DNA from: Mobula hypostoma
Taxonomy: Eukaryota
DNA: 64,000 nucleotides
Reading direction: 5' to 3'
Assembly (NCBI RefSeq): GCF_963921235.1
Contig: NC_086097.1
Span: 131,628,001-131,692,000, forward strand
In this document: piece after piece, positions 3,135-48,332 of the stretch
Position numbering within the stretch: position 1 is the first letter of the stretch
Layout: every line of letters begins with the position of its first letter
Notes under the pieces: generated by a model
Told to the model about the DNA's origin: nothing
The model's database searches: none
The model's input: the letters and a program-made list of their open reading frames with translations, nothing else
Translations under genes and position numbers: made by a program

Positions 3135-4190
3135 ATCAAATAAAGGCACAAGAGAATGCAAGTGCTGGAAAATGGAGCAACACACCAAATGCTCAGCAGG
3201 ACAGGCAGCATCAATGGTGCAAAATGGACAGTCGATGTTTTGGGTCGTGCCCCTTCTTCTGGACTGAAAGAAGGAGTAAGATAGCCAGGATAACAGGTGA
3301 GGGAGGGGTAGAGCAAGAACTGGCAAGTGATCCCAGCGGGGAAATTAATAGATGACCGTGGGGTGGGAGGGGAAAGAGTGGGATGTAATAAGTGGAAGTA
3401 ACTCAAGGCTGAAGATGATGGAATCTTATAAAAGAGGAAAGTGGAGCATGAAGTAGACAGAGGGAAATGACTGGGTGATGGGGCAGATGAAGGATGGTGG
3501 GGAGGGTAAAGGGAGATGGAGGGCTGGAGAGATTGCGAGATGGGGGTTAGTTGGATCAGGAGGAGAGAGGAAAGGAAAGAGGGCAAAAGGTCTGGGGGGA
3601 GTGTTACTGGAACTTTGAGAATTTTGTGTAGTGCTGTCATGCTAGAGAATACAGGAAGAATATAAGGTTCTGTAGGCCATTGAGCCTGCCCACATTCAAT
3701 ATCATCATTGCTGATTAACAATCACAACAACACTTCCCTCTCATTGGTGACCTCCTTGCTTTCAATACACCAGTGAAAGGTCACTGAGGCAGGCAGTGAC
3801 TGTGGACAGTTGGTATTTTGGGTGGAGAAGGAGAGATAACCAGTAGAAAATGGTAGAGGGAAAGGGTGAAGCAGAAGATAGCAGGTAATAGGTGGATCCA
3901 AGTGAAGGAGAGGTGATAGACAGTTCAGGGAGTAGGAATATTGGCAGAAGCTTAGAGGTGTAGGTGGAGTGATCATAGGGCTAAAGATGATGGGATTTTA
4001 TAACAGGAAGGTGGAGCTCAGAATCATTACCCTGGTTCTCTTCCCCAACTGATCTCATCTGCCCTCTTATGCGGAGGGCAGATGGGATCAGTTGGGGAAG
4101 AGATCCAGGGTAATGGGGACTGGGTAAATCAGCATAGATGAAGGGGACTGGGCAGATGGGTGTTACAACAACCCAATAAATCATTAATCA
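3135..4190 (-). mobile_element. Two old Penelope-like terminus fragments
   Basis: Reverse-strand tail (aagagaatgcaagtgctggaaa...aaatgctcagcaggacaggcagcatc), decayed hammerhead at 3229-3266 and GA-rich tracts. Confidence 0.55.
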
Positions 4191-4359
4191 GTGTCTCTGG
4201 TGCCTTGTTTACTCTTTCTTGTTAGGATGGTTCCAGGATTTTAGAAGATGAGGGTTATGGCCTCTGATGCTTTTTGTTTGACATTATCTGCAGGCATTCT
4301 TGAAGCAAAGGAGAGGAGATTGAATGCAATTGAACATCAGAGTGGCCTTCCAGGATGAG

Positions 4360-4630
4360 GGGCCACCTCACTGTTTCTGCAACTTGGGTTCGATTCCAAC
4401 CTCCGGTGCTGCTCAGGCAGACTTTGTGTGCACTCCTCGTCTCTATCTACATTTCCTCTGGGTGCACCAGTTTCCTTGCACATCACAAAGATATCCTGAG
4501 TGTAGATAATAGAGAAATATTAAAGGGTATTTGTGAGGGAAAGGGTTACAGAGATACAAGTGGGAGGGATGAGTTCGATGGAGTTGCTATGAGAATTGGC
4601 TTAGACTTACTGGCCTGCATGGTCAACCTA
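4360..4630 (+). mobile_element. tRNA-derived HE1/V-SINE-like element
   Basis: B-box-like gggttcgattcc, followed by the V-domain-like tttcctctgggtgcaccagtttccttgcacatcacaaaga. Confidence 0.55.
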
Positions 4631-4693
4631 ACTCGCCCAGGCTGACCAGGTTGCCTACCTAAGCTAGTCCCATTATTGTGCATCTCTCTAAAC

Positions 4694-13030: not shown

Positions 13031-13317
13031 AGGTGGGTGTATGGAATGGGAGTCACACGTGAGAGATGTACTCTATAACTCCATAACTCCATCTGAGCAA
13101 GGGAGCAAGAAAAAGAGAGAATCCACCATCCAGCTATGCCAACACTCACTGAACACATCCAATTAACGCTTTGGGATATTGGGGGAAATAAGAGCACCCA
13201 GAGGAAACCCATGTGGTCACAAGGAGAACATGCAAGCTCCATGCAGTGAGCATCAGAGATCATATTGAACTCCAATCACATGAGCCAGGAGACGGCAGCT
13301 TTACTAGGACAGCCAAT

Positions 13318-14330
13318 GTAAACAACAGGAATTCTGCAGATGCTGGAAATTCAAGCAACACACATCAAAGTTGCTGGTGAACACAGCAGGCCAGGCAGCA
13401 TCTCTAGGAAGAGGTACAGTCGACGTTTCAGGCCGAGACCCTTCATCAGGACTAACTGAAGGAAGAGTTAGTAAGAGATTTGAAAGTGGGAGGGGGAGGG
13501 GGAGATCCAAAATGATAGGAGAAGACAGGAGGGGGAGGGATGGAGCGAAGAGCTGGACAGGTGATTGGCAAAGGGGATATGAGAGGATCATGGGACAGGA
13601 GGTCTGGGGAGAGAGACGGGGGGGGGGGAACCCAGAGGATGGGCAAGCGGTATAGTCAGAAGGACAGAGGGAGAAAAAGGAGAGAGAGAGAAAGAATGTG
13701 TGTATATAAATAAATAATGGATGGGGTACCAGGGGGAGGTGGGGCATTAGCAGAAGTTAGAGAAGGATCTCCCAGTGGCCACACATTTTAATTCCACATC
13801 CTATTCCCATTCTGACATGTCTATCCACGGCCTGCTCTACTGTAAAGATGAAGCAACAGTCAGGTTGGAGGAACAACACCTTATATTCAGCCTGGGTAGC
13901 CTGATGGCATGAACATTGACTTCTCTAACTTCCGGTAATGCCCCACCTCCCCCTCGTACCCCATCCGTTATTTATTTATATACACAGATTCTTTCTCTCT
14001 CCTTTTTCTCCCTCTGTCCCTCTGACTATACCCCTTGCCCATCCTCTGGGTTTCCGCCCCCCCGCTTGTCTTTCTCCCCGGACCTCCTGTCCCATGATCC
14101 TCTCATATCCCTTTTGCCAATCACCTGTCCAGCTCTTGGCTCCATCCATCCCCCTCCTGTCTTCTCCTATCATTTTGGATCTCCCCCCTCTGCCTCCCAC
14201 TTTCAAATCTCTTACTAACTCTTCCTTCAGTTAGTCCTGACGAAAAGTCTCGGCCTGAAACGTCGACTGTACCTCTTCCTAGAGATGCTGACTGGTCTGC
14301 TGCGTTCACCAGCAACTTTGATGTGTGTTG
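13318..14330. mobile_element. Penelope-like (Neptune-type) fold-back insertion: terminus in both orientations
   Basis: Inverted arms of about 410 bp (about 13353-13765 vs 13920-14330). The spacer encodes the GIY-YIG C-terminus (DLPVATHFNSTSYSHSDMSIHGLLYC). TSD cagccaat (13310-13317 / 14331-14338). Confidence 0.9.
13417..13454 (-). ncRNA. Minimal type I hammerhead ribozyme motif (Penelope-associated)
   Basis: Minus strand reads UAGUC-CUGAUGA-A-GGGU-CUCG-GCCU-GAAAC-GUC-GACUG: conserved core, stem II with tetraloop, stem I UAGUC/GACUG, and palindromic ACGU in place of stem III. Confidence 0.75.
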
Positions 14331-15198
14331 CAGCCAATAAGTAATATGTTTTGTGAACACTCTGAGACTGCAACAGGTGCTAGATAAAGGCAAGTCAATC
14401 TTTCTTTTCCTCACCTCATCAATGTTGAAACATCTCACGAAATAACATTGCGTTGTGATGTTAAGCAAGTGTGTTTTTTGATGTGTTATACAGTACCTCT
14501 GTTGTAAGTTAATGAAGAATAAGCTGGAGGAGAGGAGTAATAACTTAAATGATGTTTCTTGGGAAGTTATAGGCAGGGGATCCCACTTGAATTTACATCT
14601 GTTGATCTTTGGAGTGACACTCACAGGTATGAATATTATATTGCAAATGTGCATTCACGTATCCATTTCCTCAGACCTTTTTTGGGCTGAAGTTACTTGC
14701 AGTATACACCCCTGTGTATAACTGCAGATAAGCTTGTGTGATCTCCCAGCTTTCCACTCTCTCCTGTGGCTCTGATTCCATACAACCACCTCCATCATCA
14801 GTCATTCATCAGAATTGTCTCACTGCCTTGACACAACTTAATTTCTAATGGATGTCAGCTGATATCATTTATTGCCTGTCTCTAATTGCCCTCTGCTACA
14901 CCACTTCAGAGGCAAAGCCTGGAGTCACAGAAAGGCCTCCCTGAAGGATATTGAATGAGCCAGATGGGTTTTTACAAATCAGTGAAGTTACTGATATTAG
15001 CTTTTTAGTTCCTTGTTTTGTCAATTATTTGAGTTTAAATTCTCCCAAAAATTGCAGTAGAATTCATAGTACTACTTAATTAACTCTTTATGGTAGCATG
15101 CCTTAAGTCCTTTAATCATCAAAATCTTTCTATGTTTCAAAAGCGCAGGCAACACAGGAATAAACTTGAACCATTTGTTTCACTGTGGATTTAACATG

Positions 15199-19120: not shown

Positions 19121-19600
19121 GAATAAAAGAAGAGAGAGTTGACTTTACTGCAACTAGTAAAATCATGTGATTTCTCTGATTTCTCTCAATTCCTAAGCCC
19201 TCAATCAAGCACATCCTTTTAACCAGTTCCAAATTTGAATACAGCCAATGACTGAACTTCCACAGTTTTTGGCATAGAGGATTGCAAATCTTCACAACTT
19301 TCTGAGAAAAGAGTTTTCATCTCCTTTCTGTCCACCATGGCTTCCTGCTTATTCTAAGCTTAGGGTCTCTCGTTCTAGACTCTCCAACTAAAAGGAGCAA
19401 ATCTCTTATCTTACATTCCATCAATCTATCTTTAGTATGCATCAGATAACTGCTTCTCTTCTAAGCTCCATGTAGGACCACCTCATTATAATACAACCCT
19501 AGGAAACATTTAAGATCACCCTATCCTGCAAAATTGAAATTCAAATGTGAATTTCTTCAAAAAAATGCTATCTGAAGACAAATCATTAGCTTGCAAACCT

Positions 19601-19845
19601 AGCAACACACATCAAAGTTGCTGGTGAACGCAGCAGGCCAGGCAGCATCTCTAGGAAAAGGTACAGTTGATGTTTCGGGCCGAGACCCTTCGTCAGGACT
19701 ATCCTTCGTTAGTTCTGACGAAGGGTCTTGGCCCGAAACGTTGACTGTACCTCTTCCTAGAGATGCTGCCTGGCCTGCTGCGTTCACCAGCAACTTTGAT
19801 GTGGGTTGGTTGAATTTCCAGCATCCGCAGAATTCCTTGTGTTTA
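19601..19845. mobile_element. Palindromic Penelope-terminus insertion carrying two back-to-back hammerheads
   Basis: Inverted arms of about 100 bp (19601-19701 / 19710-19810) around an 8-nt spacer. 13-bp TSD agcttg(c/a)aaacct (19588-19600 / 19846-19858). Confidence 0.9.
19710..19747 (+). ncRNA. Minimal type I hammerhead ribozyme motif
   Basis: UAGUU-CUGACGA-A-GGGU-CUUG-GCCC-GAAAC-GUU-GACUG: intact core, NUH triplet GUU, palindrome AACGUU. Confidence 0.75.
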
Positions 19846-41000: not shown

Positions 41001-43110
41001 AATGGTTGTAGATGGGTCATATTCTGCATGGAGGTTGGTCACCAGTGGTGTGCCTCAGAGATCTGTTCTGGGACCCCTATTCTTTGTAATTTTTATAAAT
41101 GACCTGGATGAGGAAGTGGAGGGATGGGTTAGTAAATTTGCTGATGACACAAAGATTGGAGGTGTTGTAGATAGTATGGACGGCTGTCAGAGGTTACAGC
41201 AGGACTTTGATAGGATGCAAAACTGGGTTGAGAAGTGGCAGATGGAGTTTAACCCAGAAAAGTGTGAGGTTGATCATTTTGGTAGGTCAAATATGATGAA
41301 AGAATATAGTATTAATGGTAAGACTCTCGGCAGTGTGGAGGATCAGAGGGATCTTGGGGTCCGAGTCCATAGGACACTCAAAGTTGCTGCGCAGGTTGAC
41401 TCTGTGGTTAAGAAAGCATACGGTGCATTGGCCTTCATCAATCATGGGATTGAGTTTAGAAGCCGAGAGGTAATGTTGCAGATATATAGGACCCCACTTG
41501 GAGTACTGTGCTCAGTTCTGGTTGACTCACTATAGGAAGGATGTGGAAACCATAGAAAGGGTGCAGAGGAGATTTACAAGGATGTTTGCCTGGATTGGGG
41601 AGCATACCTTATGAGAATAGGTTGAGTGAACTCGGCCTCTTTTCCTTGGAGTGACGAAGATTGAGAGGTGACCTGATAGAGGTGTATGAAATGATGAGAG
41701 GCATTGATTATGTGGATAGTCAGAGGCTTTTTCCCAGGGCTGAAATGACTTGTATGAGAGGGCACAGTTTTAAGGTGCTTGGAAGTAGGTTCAGAGGAGA
41801 TACCAGGGGTAAGTTTTTTACACAGAGAGTGGTGAGTGTGTGGAATGAGCTGCTGGCGATGGTGGTGGAGGCGGAAACAATAGGGTCTTTTAAGAGACTC
41901 CTGGATGGGTAAAATGCTGAAGATCCTGAAAGCTTGCGGAGTGCCAGACCATCTACTGAGAGCAATAGAGTCCAGATATACCAAAACCATGGCGAAAGTT
42001 GTATCACCAGACAGAGAAACAGCAGTGTTTGAGCTCCTAGCTGGTGTGCTGCAAGGAGACACTCTAACACCCTACATCGCTATAATCATCCTTGATTATG
42101 CTTTACGTCAAGCTAGCAAAGTTCATGACAAGCTCGGTTTTACCATAAAACCAGGACGAACCAAAAGGGTCAGATCAGTTACGCTCACAGATCTCGATTT
42201 TGCAGATGACATAGTCCTGTTCTCTGACCAGATGGAGGAAGCACAGCAGCTACTGCCAAAAGTGGAAATTGAGTGCAATAAAGTTGGACTTCACCTAAAC
42301 GCTAAAAAGACAGAGTACATGGTATTTAACTGCAACGAAGGTACTCTCAAGACTGTAAAGAATGATACCATTAAGAAAGTCTTTGACTACAGGTACCTCA
42401 GGTCAAGAATGATGAGTTCGGAGATGGACATAAAGATACGGAAGGCGTTGGTGTGGAGGGCTATGAACGACATGAAGGAAATCTGAAAGTTGAACCTGAC
42501 CAGAGGGCTTAAAAAGAGGATCTTCATAGCAGTCATAGAGTCCATTCTCACGTACAGATGCGAGATGTGGACACTCACCAAGGCTATGTGAAAGTCTCTA
42601 GATGGTTGCTATATATGAATGCTCCAGATGGCTCTAGATGTGAGTTGGCAACAGCACATGACGAACGTTGAGTTCTGTGACAACCAGCCGATGCTCACCA
42701 CTAAAATCGAGGCGAAAAGACTGCAACTAGTGGGGCACTGTCTATGCCACCCTGAGCTACCTGCCAGCTCCGTCATCATATGGGAGCCCAAGCACGGGAG
42801 GATGAACCCTGGGCGCCCTCCCAAGGCTATGTTCAACACACTCGTAGAAGACAGCGGCGCGGCTAATGTAGATGAACTGAACACGCTGATGAGGGAGAGG
42901 GAGAAGTGGGGAGTCCATCATTGTGCCCAACGCTGGCCCCCTAGGCCTGAGTCGACGTAGTAGTAGTAGTGGATAGGTACATGGTACTTAGAAAAATAAA
43001 GAGCTATGGGTAACCCTGGTAATTTCTCAGGTAAGGACATGTTCTGCACAGCTTTGTGGGCTGAAGGGCTTGTATTGTGCTGTAGGTTTTCTATGTTTCT
43101 ACGTTTCTTT
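38017..43110 (+). mobile_element. Near full-length degenerate CR1: ORF1 (Cys motif plus SGNH esterase), ORF2 (APE plus RT), 3' tail
   Basis: FCAQCQMWE; VIGDSIVRG..VVCLPGARV..VHIGTNN; CIYFNARSIMNK; GESDHNSV; YMDFSKAFDKVPH; SKFADDTK; gtttctat tail near 43090-43108. Confidence 0.92.
41912..42969 (+). mobile_element. RTE/RTEX-type LINE 3' part nested in the CR1
   Basis: AGVLQGDTLTPY..DLDFADD..GLHLNAKKTEYM..RLQLVGHC; (TAG)n tail; TSD tggat(g/a)ggta (41902-41911 / 42970-42979). Confidence 0.88.
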
Positions 43111-43565
43111 GATTTTCCCTGGCTATAGGTTGACTCATTATAGAGCCTAAGAGGTGAGGGTAAGAATGACCTCGTATAGTGCTCTATTACAAAAAGTGCT
43201 CCTCTGTTCAGCCAAAGTGCCGTGCAGAGGGTGAGAAACAGTTCCAGAATTGCCAGGATTTTCCGTAGGGTCCATTGTTTTACCACAGACTCCAGTGTGT
43301 CCATTTTGACTCCTATAACAGGGCCAGCCTTTCTAATCAGATTAGTGAGCCTGTTGGCATCATCCGTGTTGATGCCATTGCCCCAGCACACCATCACATA
43401 GAAGATTGCACTGGCGACAACAGACTGGTAGAACATGTGAAGTATAGATTCTCTAGGAAGTTGCCCAGAATGGAGGGCAAGGAGAGATTAGATAGGTTGG
43501 AATTGTTCTCACTGGATTGCAGGTGGCTGAGGGGGTGATCTTATAGATACTTATAAAATCATAGG

Positions 43566-44113
43566 GGGGTATGGGGTGTCCTCTGGTGGAGGAATATGTC
43601 ACGTCCTTTTCAGGGTGGTTAGTCAACATTTGGTCCCCACCTGGCACTCAGCTCTCACCTGTGGCTCCCCGTAGCTGTTTACATGCGACAGCGGCCACAC
43701 CCCGGGCAATGGCTTTGACAAGCCAGCTAAACCAGGTGAGGGTAGCCGACGGGTCTCAAACCCTCGGTGAGATAGGGAGTTGTCTATCCCAACATGTGAA
43801 GACAGACTCCGGTGGATTGAGTGGACAAGACCAATGGAAAGTCCAATGGTCAAGAAGGCGGTCTCTGCAAGCGTCATGGAATGTGTAGAGCACGACAAGA
43901 CACAGAAATTGTCCTGGTCATCCACTGCGCCTAGTCCCATCTCCAGCCGTCTTGACTCTCGTCTTGCCACTGGATCCAGATGGGAATTGGGAAGAGAGAG
44001 TGAGGCTGACGCTGCGCATCTCTCCCTCACTTAAATCCAAATCATGCGCTGGTCTTGACACCATCACCATGGTGTCAAGGTCTTCATCGACGTCAACGAT
44101 GGACGAACAACCC
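43566..44113 (+). mobile_element. Non-autonomous RTE-type retroposon (ribozyme head, RTE 5' UTR, RTE 3' tail)
   Basis: Perfect 14-bp TSD tataaaatcatagg (43552-43565 / 44114-44127) inside a CR1 fragment. No coding capacity. 3' stem-loops and an (AAC) tail. Confidence 0.88.
43573..43743 (+). ncRNA. HDV-like self-cleaving ribozyme (predicted)
   Basis: P1 GGGGUGU/ACACCCC; P2 GCUCUCACCUGU/ACCAGGUGAGGGU; P3 GGC/GCC; L3 UCCCCGUA plus a hairpin; P1.1 GG; GCAA; P4 UGGCUU/AAGCCA; J4/2 G-C-UAA. Confidence 0.8.
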
Positions 44114-45262
44114 TATAAAATCATAGGATAGGGGAGTCTGAAACTAGAGTGCAAATATTTAAAGGAGAACTGTGGGGCAAGTTATTCACGCAGAGCTGGA
44201 AATATGGAATGAGCTGCAGAACAATGGGTATAGTCACAGAGTTTACAATGTATTTGGACAGCTACATGGATAGCAAAGGGACATAGGGCAGTCGGGACTA
44301 GATTAGACTGGCACCTTTGTTGCTGTTGACACTTTGGGCTGAAGGGATGGTTTCTGTACTGTTCCCTCTATGACTGTGTGAACTTGTGGTTACACTGTAA
44401 GTCAGTGGTGACTTTGATCAGAGTAGTTTTGATCCTGTTTCAGAGCCAGGAGCCTGAATTGATGGATTTGAGTTCAAAGTTCAAAGTACATTTGTTGTCA
44501 AAGTATGTATACTATATATCACTGTGAGAGTCGTCTCATTGCATGCAGCCGCAAAACAAAGAAATGCCACAGAGCCCATTAAGAAAGAAGACTGACAAGC
44601 ACACAACGTGCAGAAAAAAATTGTGCAAACAATAAAAGTCAACAATTAACATTCTGAACTAAAGTTCACGGAAGTGAGTTCACAGCCACAAAACGATCAT
44701 CACTGTAGCCGATCCAGGAACCTGTTATTTGCACACCACTGCCGCGGTTCAGTGCAGAGACGAGTAAACCTTGAGGGGCAGTGAGCTGTACACTGGCCTG
44801 TCCCTCTTCCCTGGCCCCGACACCCTGACTGTTTCAGTCTGGCCTGGCACTTAAATTGGCCAAACTGTAGGTCATTTCTTCTCACACCCAGGTGGGCCCT
44901 GTTGCTTCAGTATGTTCTTGGGCCTGGGCCCCACCAGCTCAATTCAACACATACCCAAACTTTCCAATCTGACCCGGCACCTAAATTGAGCAAGCAGCCG
45001 GTTGTTCCTCTCTCTTGGGCTCAGGACCTGCTTCCTCCACTCTGCCTTGCCTCAGTTCTGCCACTTCGAATCGCCTCCAAGTCTGGCCCGGCAGCAGTAT
45101 TGTTTAGGTGAAGAAATTTCTCCTCGTCTATTTACTTTAGTTTGTGTGAACTCCAGTGTCATCAGGAACATCTTTCCTGCATCTACTCTACTCAGTCCTT
45201 TTAGAACTTTGCCGTGCTTTATCTAGCCTCTGCATACTTCCAAAAATCTCAGAAATATAAGC

Positions 45263-46362: not shown

Positions 46363-48332
46363 CAGGAGTCCCCCGCTTTTTGAACGTTCGCTTTACGAAA
46401 CCTCACTGTTACAAAAGACTTACATTAGTTCCCTGTTTTCGCTAACAGAAGGTGTTTTGACTGTTAGGAAAAAAGCAGCGCGCGCCCCGAGAAGTCGCTC
46501 TCCCCTGGATTTGGAACGGCATTCTCGCCAGCATTGCTTAAACACGTGCCTGTGAGCAGCCGTTAGCAAGATGAGTTCTAAGGTATCGGAAAAGCCTAAA
46601 AGAACTCATAAGGGTGTTATACTTGGCGTAAAACTAGATATAATTAAGCATTTCGATGATGGTGAACGAAGTAAGGACAAAGTGAGTTTGGCTTGTGGAC
46701 ACGAGGAAATCTGCAGATGCTGGAAATTTAAACAACACATATTGAAGTTGCTGGTGAATGCAGCAGGCCAGGCAGCATCTCTAGGAAGAGGTACAGTTGA
46801 CGTTTCGGGCTGAGACCCTTTGTCAGGACTAACTGAAAGAAGAGCTAGTAAGAGATTTGAAAGTGGGAGGGGGAGGGGGAGATCCAAAATGATAGGAGAA
46901 GACGGCGGGGGGGGCATGGAGCCAAGAGCTGGTCAGGTGATTGGCAAAAGGGATATGAGAGGATCATGGGACAGGAGGCCTAAGGAGAAAGAAAAGGGGA
47001 AGGGGGGAGGAAAAACCCAGAGGATGGGCAAGGGGTATAGTGAGAGGGACAGAGGGAGAAAAAGGAGAAAGAGAACAAGAATGTATGTATATAAATAAAT
47101 AACGGATGGGGTACAAGGGGGAGGTGGGGCATTAGCAGAAGTTTGAGAAGTCAATGTTCATGCCATCAAGTTGGAGGCTACCCAGACGGAATATAAGGTG
47201 TTGTTCCTCCAACCTGAGTGTGGCTTCATCTTTACAGTAGAGGAGGCCGCGGATGGACATATTAGAATGGGAATGAGACGTGGAATTAAAATGTGTGGTC
47301 ACTGGGAGATCCTGCTTTCTCCCTTACACTTCCTCCCTTACCACCATTCAGGGCCCCAGACAGTCCTTCCAGGTGAGGTGACACTTCACCTGTGAGTCGG
47401 CTGGGGTGATATACTGCGTCCAGTGCTCCTGATGTGGCCTCCTATATATTGGCGAGACATGATGCAGACTGGGTGATCGTTTTGCTGAACACCTACGCTC
47501 TGTCCACTAGAGAAAGCAGGATCTTCTCCTATCATTTTGGATCTGCCCCTCCCCCTCCCACTTTCAAATCTCTTACTAGCTCTTCTTTCAGTTAGTCCTG
47601 ACGAAGGGTCTCGGCCCAAAATGTCGACTATACCTCTTTCTAGAGATGCTGCCTGGCCTGCTGCGTTCACCAGCAACTTTGATGTGTGTTGCTTGGCTGG
47701 TGGAAGCTGATGGAGATGATGTTGAAGAGGTTTTGGCATCCCATGACCAAGGACTGATAGATGAAGAGCTGATGCAATTGGAAGAGGAAAGGATAACAAT
47801 CGAAATCGAATGCAGTAGCGAACTGAATGTGAAGCAACTGCGTGAGATTTTCGCTGCAATGATAAAGTACGACTTTAATTTTGAAAGGGTAAGTCGGTTT
47901 AGGGGATATTTGCAGGACAGTCTGAGTCCTTACAAAGAACTGTATGATAGAAAAATGCGCGAGGCTCAGCAGTCAAGCAAGCCTTCCACATCAGCCACAG
48001 CAGACGACGAACCTTGACCTTCGACATCGAGGCGGGCAGTCATAGGAGAAGATGACCTGCCTGCCCTAATGGAAACAGATGACGACGAGATGACACCCCA
48101 ACTCCCAGGGCGCGGACAGATATCGATTCGTGGAGAATGCAGCGGTAGCCGGGAGGCACACAGCACATCTTTAAGAAAAAAGCCAAAATAAACGTGCTAA
48201 TTAATTAGGTGTCACCTGACACATAATTGCCGGCCCAGATCAGAGGCGATGCAAGCTTCTTCACTTTACGACATTTTGGCTTACGAACCGTTTCATAGGA
48301 ACGCTCTATCTTCGGATGGCAGGGGAAACCTG
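46363..48332 (+). mobile_element. Tigger/pogo-type DNA transposon, internally deleted
   Basis: Imperfect TIRs caggagtcccccgc / gcaggggaaacctg with TA TSDs. N-terminal CENP-B-like HTH (PKRTHKGVILGVKLDIIKHFDDGER) and TIGD-like C-terminus (DDVEEVLASHDQGLIDEELMQLEE..LSPYKELY). No DDD domain. Confidence 0.85.
46700..47692. mobile_element. Penelope-like fold-back insertion inside the Tigger
   Basis: TSD ttggct(t/g)gtgga (46688-46699 / 47693-47704). Minus arm 46700-47318, inverted GIY-YIG piece and terminus 47320-47692. Hammerhead variants at 46794-46831 (-) and 47593-47630 (+). Confidence 0.9.

Follow-up and report, generated by a model that had tools for sequence, protein, structure and literature searches.

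A decayed non-autonomous RTE element with a predicted HDV-ribozyme-like 5' end

Does a stretch of DNA that pairs like an HDV ribozyme mark the beginning of a mobile element, and if so, of which element and from which base? The question is raised by an insert in the window (the whole stretch of 64,000 nucleotides analysed here), part of which had been read, from the letters alone, as a complete, canonical HDV-like ribozyme at the head of a SINE-like, self-cleaving retroposon. We find that the 550-base insert (43564-44113) is a non-autonomous RTE element in a state of decay, for which an HDV-ribozyme-like 5' end is predicted, the fold taking up approximately the first 195 nt (Table 1). The helices of the nested double pseudoknot are present at the coordinates given by the sequence-only reading, and all of the listed pairings held when checked: GGGGUGU at 43573-79 is exactly complementary to ACACCCC at 43697-703, and the 71-nt J1/2, P2 (43651-62/43731-43), P3 (GGC/GCC), GG at 43704-05, GCAA, P4 and G-C43727-UAA were all confirmed. 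The broader proposal, an HDV-like fold heading a non-coding retroposon that relies on RTE machinery, is likewise supported, and the autonomous parent was found. The words complete and canonical fit the order of the structural elements; what they overlooked is a hairpin inserted in L3 and the lesions of the window copy, namely 15 nt missing from J1/2, one mismatch in the outer P1, and changes at 43681, 43710, 43716 and 43725. In HDV, the equivalent of 43710/43725, a C-G pair at the base of P4, forms a triple. The window copy is predicted to be, probably, a weak or mis-registered cutter.

Table 1. Coordinates of the insert, its flanking duplications and the parts of its predicted fold in the window
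Feature	Position	Strand	Remarks
Left target-site duplication (14 nt)	43552..43565	+	Last GG may be common to the element's first unit
First 9-nt unit (family GGGGTRTAT; altered in the window copy)	43564..43572	+	P1 5' strand probably supplied by its first 7 nt
Second unit (P1 of the sequence-only reading)	43573..43579	+	P1.2 with 43644-43649, closing the J1/2 domain; alternative P1 register
J1/2 peripheral domain (long stem-loop)	43580..43650	+	15 nt absent between 43579 and 43580 in the window copy
P2 5' strand	43651..43662	+	12 bp with 43731-43743
P3 5' strand	43663..43665	+	
Canonical part of L3 (UCCCCGUA)	43666..43673	+	C43667-C43668 in P1.1; U43666 and G43671 at the reverse-wobble positions
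Hairpin inserted in L3	43674..43693	+	Stem 43674-78/43688-92, CAUG loop, then G43693
P3 3' strand (43694-96) and P1 3' strand (43697-703)	43694..43703	+	
P1.1 GG and J1.1/4 GCAA	43704..43709	+	
P4	43710..43725	+	Basal pair U-A in the window copy, C-G in the family (CpG decay, both strands)
J4/2 G-C-U-A-A	43726..43730	+	Candidate catalytic C43727, C in 53/53 copies
P2 3' strand	43731..43743	+	
Remainder of the retained RTE 5' UTR	43744..44068	+	90% identity to parent copies L108 and L110 over window 43580-44070
Hairpin spanning the deletion point	44051..44082	+	5' UTR segment paired with the first 3' UTR bases; 11 Watson-Crick pairs, 14 with G-U
RTE 3' UTR and short AAC-type tail (44106-44113)	44069..44113	+	36/41 identical to the parent's end
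Right target-site duplication (14 nt)	44114..44127	+	

The insert consists of the first ~505 nt and the last ~45 nt of an RTE-type LINE of 4.1 kb, united by a single internal deletion. It is single in the window, and its longest plus-strand frame from stop to stop is 107 aa, with no ORF. The term SINE-like holds in so far as the element is a non-coding retroposon; a bipartite non-autonomous RTE (SIDE) is the better description, considering that it combines the lack of an ORF with a target-site duplication (TSD), a microsatellite tail, many like copies, and the 5' and 3' ends of a parent with an internal deletion. A classical SINE was rejected: no tRNA, 5S or 7SL head is present (no tRNA head was found in the element, and a Rfam search was without match), nor are there exact Pol III boxes, copy L012 having no exact match to the A or B box patterns. 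A retrozyme was rejected as well, on the grounds of the single copy in the window, single copies between TSDs and no hammerhead match in Rfam. Dispersed LINE-like repeats elsewhere in the window, which we take to be CR1, match both flanks of the insert.

The parent was traced through a metagenome homologue, L095, that extends beyond the deletion point of the element into an endonuclease ORF. The 5' UTR of L095 that the element does not share was used to find long elements in the genome, and four of these (L108-L111) were fetched. Two of them closely resemble family copy L012 before running on: L108 is 92% identical to it over 537 nt and L110 93% over 521 nt, with an endonuclease match just downstream in both. 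The end of L108 lies ~4.09 kb from its start and comprises the end of a zinc-finger-like ORF, a matching 3' UTR, identical to window 44069-44109 at 36 of 41 bases, and a 9-nt TSD. The parent is thus known from its two ends, and the label RTE is indirect, resting on endonuclease and reverse transcriptase (RT) matches in L073, endonuclease matches in L095 and L102, and by-eye resemblance to RTE-1_PSi and RTE-3_AMi. Other candidates were discarded. L073, a member of a second family (B), is 74% identical and has a different 3' end; L109 and L111 belong to the L078 family, which is without the ribozyme; and the RTE fragment at 41912-42972 of the window has a GTA tail, with none of its 11 other loci matching the element. 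That fragment, on the plus strand, is a 5'-truncated LINE with an RT match and an RTE-like end, inserted in another LINE fragment and represented by 9106 candidates in the genome.

A search of the 3.48-Gb genome with the element gave 4935 candidates; the 40 that were scored are 93-94% alike, the window copy itself excepted, and 30 copies average 97% identity to their own majority sequence. A 17-mer from the 5' end occurs 2062 times, as against 34 times for a control; this is a lower bound for the sequence and includes long copies, and we put the copy number of the element at about 2,000 or more. When the 5' 236 nt served as the query, 29 of the 30 loci recovered were of the short form, TSDs of at least 7 nt flank 23/30 and 21/30 loci in two sets with 5 loci in common, and the 3' end carries AAC or AACC tails. 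The family J1/2 is 15 nt longer than that of the window copy, which has a deletion after 43579. Near-identical sequence is present in sequencing runs of six organisms, one of which may be the source itself, with shares of at least 0.70. The strict metagenome pattern returned 0 loci, as did the viral pattern, and an RT query in viral contigs returned nothing; the relaxed metagenome pattern gave 13 loci, comprising 2 homologues and 11 chance matches. Loci L074-L077 have no homology to the element except for one 29-nt match in L075.

Several relatives and neighbors were observed along the way. Family B is a second autonomous RTE-type family (L073 4608-9260, at G000:C1 about 31330600-31335260, and L079-L094) with the same ribozyme core and L3 hairpin and with ragged starts; L073 carries the endonuclease and RT domains. 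In a third family (L078 about 3700-4690, L109 and L111), the downstream 5' UTR and the 3'-end type are shared and a GC-rich sequence replaces the ribozyme. Because this ribozyme-less family looks numerous, the ribozyme may be replaceable. The endonuclease frames of L095 (806-960) and L102 (2159-2270) open 30-45 codons before the first conserved motif, with no Met before the motif in L095. The window further contains a MITE-like repeat with long terminal inverted arms (88-95% complementary) in at least 3 copies (13317-14331, 19589-19845 and 46694-47696).

How far does the fold exceed what chance would provide? In the alignments, 94-95% of the cells are paired in the nested double-pseudoknot order (P1, P1.1, P2, P3, P4), compared with 34-49% in slid controls. 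Rfam gave no match to the insert, either at the gathering threshold or at E<=10, with the HDV and CPEB3 models included. Pseudoknot-free folding is no better than in shuffles (z of -0.49 for the window copy and -0.67 for copy L061), which is uninformative because the fold is a pseudoknot; the best nested fold hides C43727 by pairing the P3 5' strand with J4/2. A loose descriptor found no site in the window with an L3 of 7-8 nt and two with an L3 of 9-30 nt, the insert among them. Given that ten random windows yield sites in 0/10 cases for the short L3 and a mean of 0.3 sites for the longer one, the descriptor by itself is weak evidence, and the window by itself is suggestive. The second site lies outside 43000-44500 or on the minus strand, with ~0.3 per window expected by chance. 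The case beyond chance is therefore built on the position of the fold at the 5' end of a family, on the conservation of its core and on covariation.

The core is conserved. U43666, C43667, G43671, G43705 and C43727 are each invariant in 53/53 copies, and the seven HDV core positions (the L3 reverse wobble, the CC/GG of P1.1 and the J4/2 C) are kept in 51-53 of the 53; this set was obtained by dropping 5 duplicates and L031, and then L001 and L020, which could not be anchored. Between RTE families (5 rows), the core is 87-97% identical, as opposed to 52-74% for J1/2. The core-base definition of HDV-like ribozymes that we followed is that of PMC6326823, in which J4/2 is given as CRRA; here it is CUAA. 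Covariation was examined in two alignments, the first with 34 of ~70 copies and the second with 9 hand-picked rows. Families A and B have changed both bases of five J1/2 pairs relative to each other in the 34-row alignment. In the 9-row alignment, 12 of 60 pairs show a double-sided change, compared with 5.0 in shuffles (0/500 reaching the observed number), although the shuffles ignore relatedness. Eight of the 12 are in J1/2, one is in P1, two are in P4 (one of these being the CpG decay of the window copy) and one closes the hairpin loop. Covariation in P1-P4 had been proposed as a check; it appears in P1 and P4, and no double-sided change was found in P2 or P3 in these alignments, while the stem of the L3 hairpin varies on one side only. 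J1/2, P1 and P4 are hence supported by covariation, and the core by conservation without it.

The feature that sets the fold apart is L3, which measures 28 nt (43666-93), and 26-28 nt in homologues. It opens with the canonical U-C-C-N-(C/A)-G, its fourth position being variable (C/U/A), and a 19-nt hairpin follows the eighth base. The base of HDV at the point where the hairpin is inserted, U27, is flipped out and dispensable, which makes an insert in L3 plausible, though unproven. The hairpin is kept among RTE 5' UTRs that are only 67-75% alike. Family copies and both metagenome homologues have a self-complementary hexamer in the hairpin loop (window 43681-43686); the self-complementarity is broken in the window copy, which has A43681 where 53/53 copies have G. 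The eight leading bases of L3, the two G-C pairs in P1.1 and the J1.1/4 junction fit the genomic HDV pattern of bioRxiv 2022.09.22.508989, according to which L3 of HDV and CPEB3 comprises 7-8 nt. Because the insert departs from this short L3, we class the element as an HDV-like variant.

Where the ribozyme would begin is a separate matter. The sequence-only reading placed the cleavage at 43572/43573, took the ggggtat before G43573 for a stutter and expected the 5' ends of copies to pile up at G43573. Comparison with the family supports none of the three: copies start, and pile up, 9 nt upstream, and the presumed stutter is the family's own first unit, GGGGTRTAT. Conservation sets in at position -9 relative to G43573, with G in 42 of 53 anchored copies and a mixture of bases at -10; of the 23 TSDs found in 30 copies, none ends at G43573 and 15 end between -10 and -6; and among the 2062 genomic copies, 1772 carry TAT upstream of G43573 and 1029 carry the full first unit. 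The 5' strand of P1 is therefore most likely the repeat located 9 nt upstream of G43573, and the cut is predicted, as the likely site, at 43563/43564, or at 43565/43566 if GG belongs to the target. In this outer register, P1 pairs at 6/7 positions in the window copy and at 7/7 in the main variant (86 of the 100 listed copies), the A-C mismatch being present in the other 14. The outer-register fold of P1 and J1/2 is energetically better in 44/50 copies (three copies were skipped in this test), by 7 kcal/mol on average, and the two registers differ by only ~2-4 kcal/mol in the window copy. RNAalifold also yields P1.2. In L095, a single metagenome copy, the outer register has U-A in place of G-C at the second P1 pair, an exchange that breaks the register of the sequence-only reading.

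The repeated units carry further information on the 5' end. A third unit is partly present (at least 6 bases) in 32 copies, compared with 1-2 estimated by chance from the composition of the flanks, and in 30 of these 32 the variable base is the same as in the copy's own first unit; the second unit is repeated in just 1 copy. Re-copying of the first nine bases by slipping back would place the first base of the RNA at the outer G. The excess of G at -10 that reverse transcription of a cap would leave is absent (8/53). In public RNA-seq data from another organism, 16 loose, adapter-like letters adjoin the first G of unit 1 on one contig (depth 11.5), although contigs do not show RNA ends; these letters are presumably Illumina adapter. 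This contig comes from 1 of 4 runs, two of the four (X21 and X22) being without reads on the stretch and the X15 contigs showing presence only. Family B has two identical 9-nt units and many single-unit copies; because a near-full first unit is found in only ~8 of its 17 copies, the P1 register is less clear there and either may be used. In five copies (L008, L010, L021, L024 and L027), the TSD is separated from the first unit by 5-7 additional bases, the last two being AT; in some copies these are partial third units, in others they look non-templated.

Taking these observations together, we consider it probable that the insert is a decayed bipartite RTE element whose HDV-like ribozyme, equipped with an L3 hairpin, served a cycle with cleavage at the outer G. 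In such a cycle, a read-through host transcript would include a copy; the ribozyme would cut before the first G of the first unit, with C43727 as the general acid, and the flank would be dropped; and the endonuclease/RT of the parent would bind the ends of the RNA and prime on the AAC tail (TPRT), yielding TSDs of ~7-14 nt. At the 5' end, the RT might sometimes slip back onto the next G run and re-copy the first 9 nt, doubling and sometimes tripling the P1 strand, and sequestration of the second unit in P1.2 would keep the cut at the outer G. The cut at G43573, with the upstream unit regenerated at each insertion, strikes us as very improbable. The second unit does pair 7/7 with P1' and is the better conserved one (52-53/53 per position), the registers are close in energy in the damaged window copy, and both may serve in family B, with its identical units; yet re-copying under that model would repeat the second unit, which happened in 1 copy as against 32 for the first, the two units differ at their last two bases, the register is broken in L095, and the second unit is occupied by P1.2.

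It is also conceivable, albeit unlikely, that the fold exists but has no cutting activity, or has lost it, and acts as a protein-binding, promoter or translation element, with -9 being a Pol II start site. An insert within the catalytic core and a core conserved without covariation would be in keeping with this, and there is precedent in Pr77 of L1Tc, which is both promoter and ribozyme, and in the proposal, in PMC6765202, that the R2 and L1Tc ribozymes function as IRES and protein-binding sites. The conserved catalytic positions are kept, however, P1 starts at the first base of the family and shows one covariation, and the G excess at -10 is missing. We attach little probability to yet another possibility, whereby the L3 hairpin switches the ribozyme on and off or lets it dimerise, with the self-complementary loop pairing two RNAs or gating cleavage, so that the ribozyme would work only when paired or bound by protein. 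In crystals, dimers of CPEB3 ribozymes form through a palindrome in L3 (bioRxiv 2022.09.22.508989). Self-complementarity of the loop hexamer is shared by families A and B and L102, and in L095 two compensating changes (pair 141-146) preserve it; but these changes would also suit an ordinary base pair at the foot of a CAUG tetraloop, they represent one event in which one of the two changes is at a CpG, and the window copy lacks the self-complementarity.

The point at which the two ends of the parent were joined has a property of its own. In the parent, the 5' UTR has, where the deletion begins, 11 bases exactly complementary to the start of the 3' UTR (0/300 shuffles), and no complement above chance was found in L073 (132/300 shuffles) or L078 (203/300). 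By eye, a complement of 9 bases, different in sequence, is present at the two corresponding places in each of RTE-1_PSi and RTE-3_AMi. Such complements may reflect a long-range pairing that directs the deletion or that mobility requires, which we regard as a lead; our literature searches gave no report of 5'-3' pairing in RTEs. It offers a testable reason why few LINE clades give rise to bipartite derivatives, a point left open in PMC5786205. A more far-reaching reading, which we put forward as tentative and rather doubtful, is that this RTE lineage combines an undescribed subclass of HDV-like ribozymes active with a helix in L3, telomerase-like re-copying of 9 nt, by which the element would maintain its cut-site strand, and pairing between the 5' and 3' UTRs over ~3.5 kb. 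If it were true, L3 would be a third natural site for peripheral domains, besides J1/2 and P4, that has been missed by short-L3 descriptors, and the 5'-3' pairing would explain the frequent bipartite RTE derivatives joined at that point. If cutting occurs at all, a helix in L3 is compatible with a working HDV core, such ribozymes have been under-counted by short-L3 searches, the L3 helix is a natural insertion site for sensors, and ribozyme-defined, promoter-free mobilisation extends to a family of thousands of copies in a 3.5-Gb animal genome. Our literature searches gave no report of an insert in L3 or of this family, a provisional result, given that a ribozyme of this kind may figure in Ruminski 2011, Webb 2009, or Webb and Luptak 2011; nor did we find a paper under the label skate HDV-like ribozyme.

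HDV-like ribozymes are known at the 5' end of RTE-clade retrotransposons (PMC3774820, PMC5786205 and PMC6765202), and, as far as the accessible parts of these and the following papers go, the closest counterparts of the insert are those RTE ribozymes and drz-Agam-2-1 (PMC4908430). As in the insert, the ribozyme is located at the first base of the element, a P1.2-closed domain occupies J1/2, P2 has 12 bp, and the linkers among P1, P1.2 and P2 are short. In drz-Agam-2-1, the P1.2 domain and the 12-bp P2 accelerate cleavage almost a thousandfold (PMC4908430). Unlike these ribozymes, the insert has a 19-nt hairpin in L3 and a P1 strand doubled from the element's own sequence; the natural variation described in the available text of PMC3774820, PMC5786205, PMC6765202 and PMC4908430 concerns J1/2 and P4, and L3 features solely through a deviation in spacing in Nasonia R2. 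Duplicated P1 strands occur at R2 5' junctions too, where a few per cent of copies contain duplications whose length is set by the cut site and which may extend J1/2 (PMC3774820). There, as here, two P1 strands can compete; in R2, however, the duplicate is 28S target sequence (PMC3774820), whereas in the insert it is the element's own first 9 nt, with a dedicated partner, P1.2, for the inner copy.

With respect to overall build, the insert resembles the R2 SIDEs of Drosophila (PMC3414825) and NARTc/RIME/SIDER of trypanosomatids (PMC4035085), non-autonomous elements in which a 5' ribozyme is likewise combined with the parent's 3' end and moved in trans. In contrast to both, the family of the insert is RTE-derived, dispersed with TSDs and present in thousands of copies, and it retains ~310 nt of 5' UTR past the ribozyme. 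The bipartite RTEs (RTESINE2, WALLSI3/MAR4, Bov-A and RTE-N2_Lch; PMC5786205) have the same build, and in the supplement to that paper, again by eye, window ~43915-44060 resembles RTE-1_PSi 27-196 and RTE-3_AMi 147-292, and the 3' end of the insert resembles RTE-1_PSi 3726-3767. Four window motifs had no exact match in the accessible supplement, and, in contrast to the insert, no ribozyme fold is shown for those families in the accessible part of PMC5786205. RTE ribozymes, R2 SIDEs, bipartite RTEs and the principle that a ribozyme and a 3' end make a mobile unit are thus already published; the present analysis adds the parent, the covariation in P1, signs that the first 9 nt are re-copied, and, where the deletion joins the two ends, the complement between 5' and 3' UTR. 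By analogy with these systems, the element would work like an HDV ribozyme on an RTE-derived SIDE.
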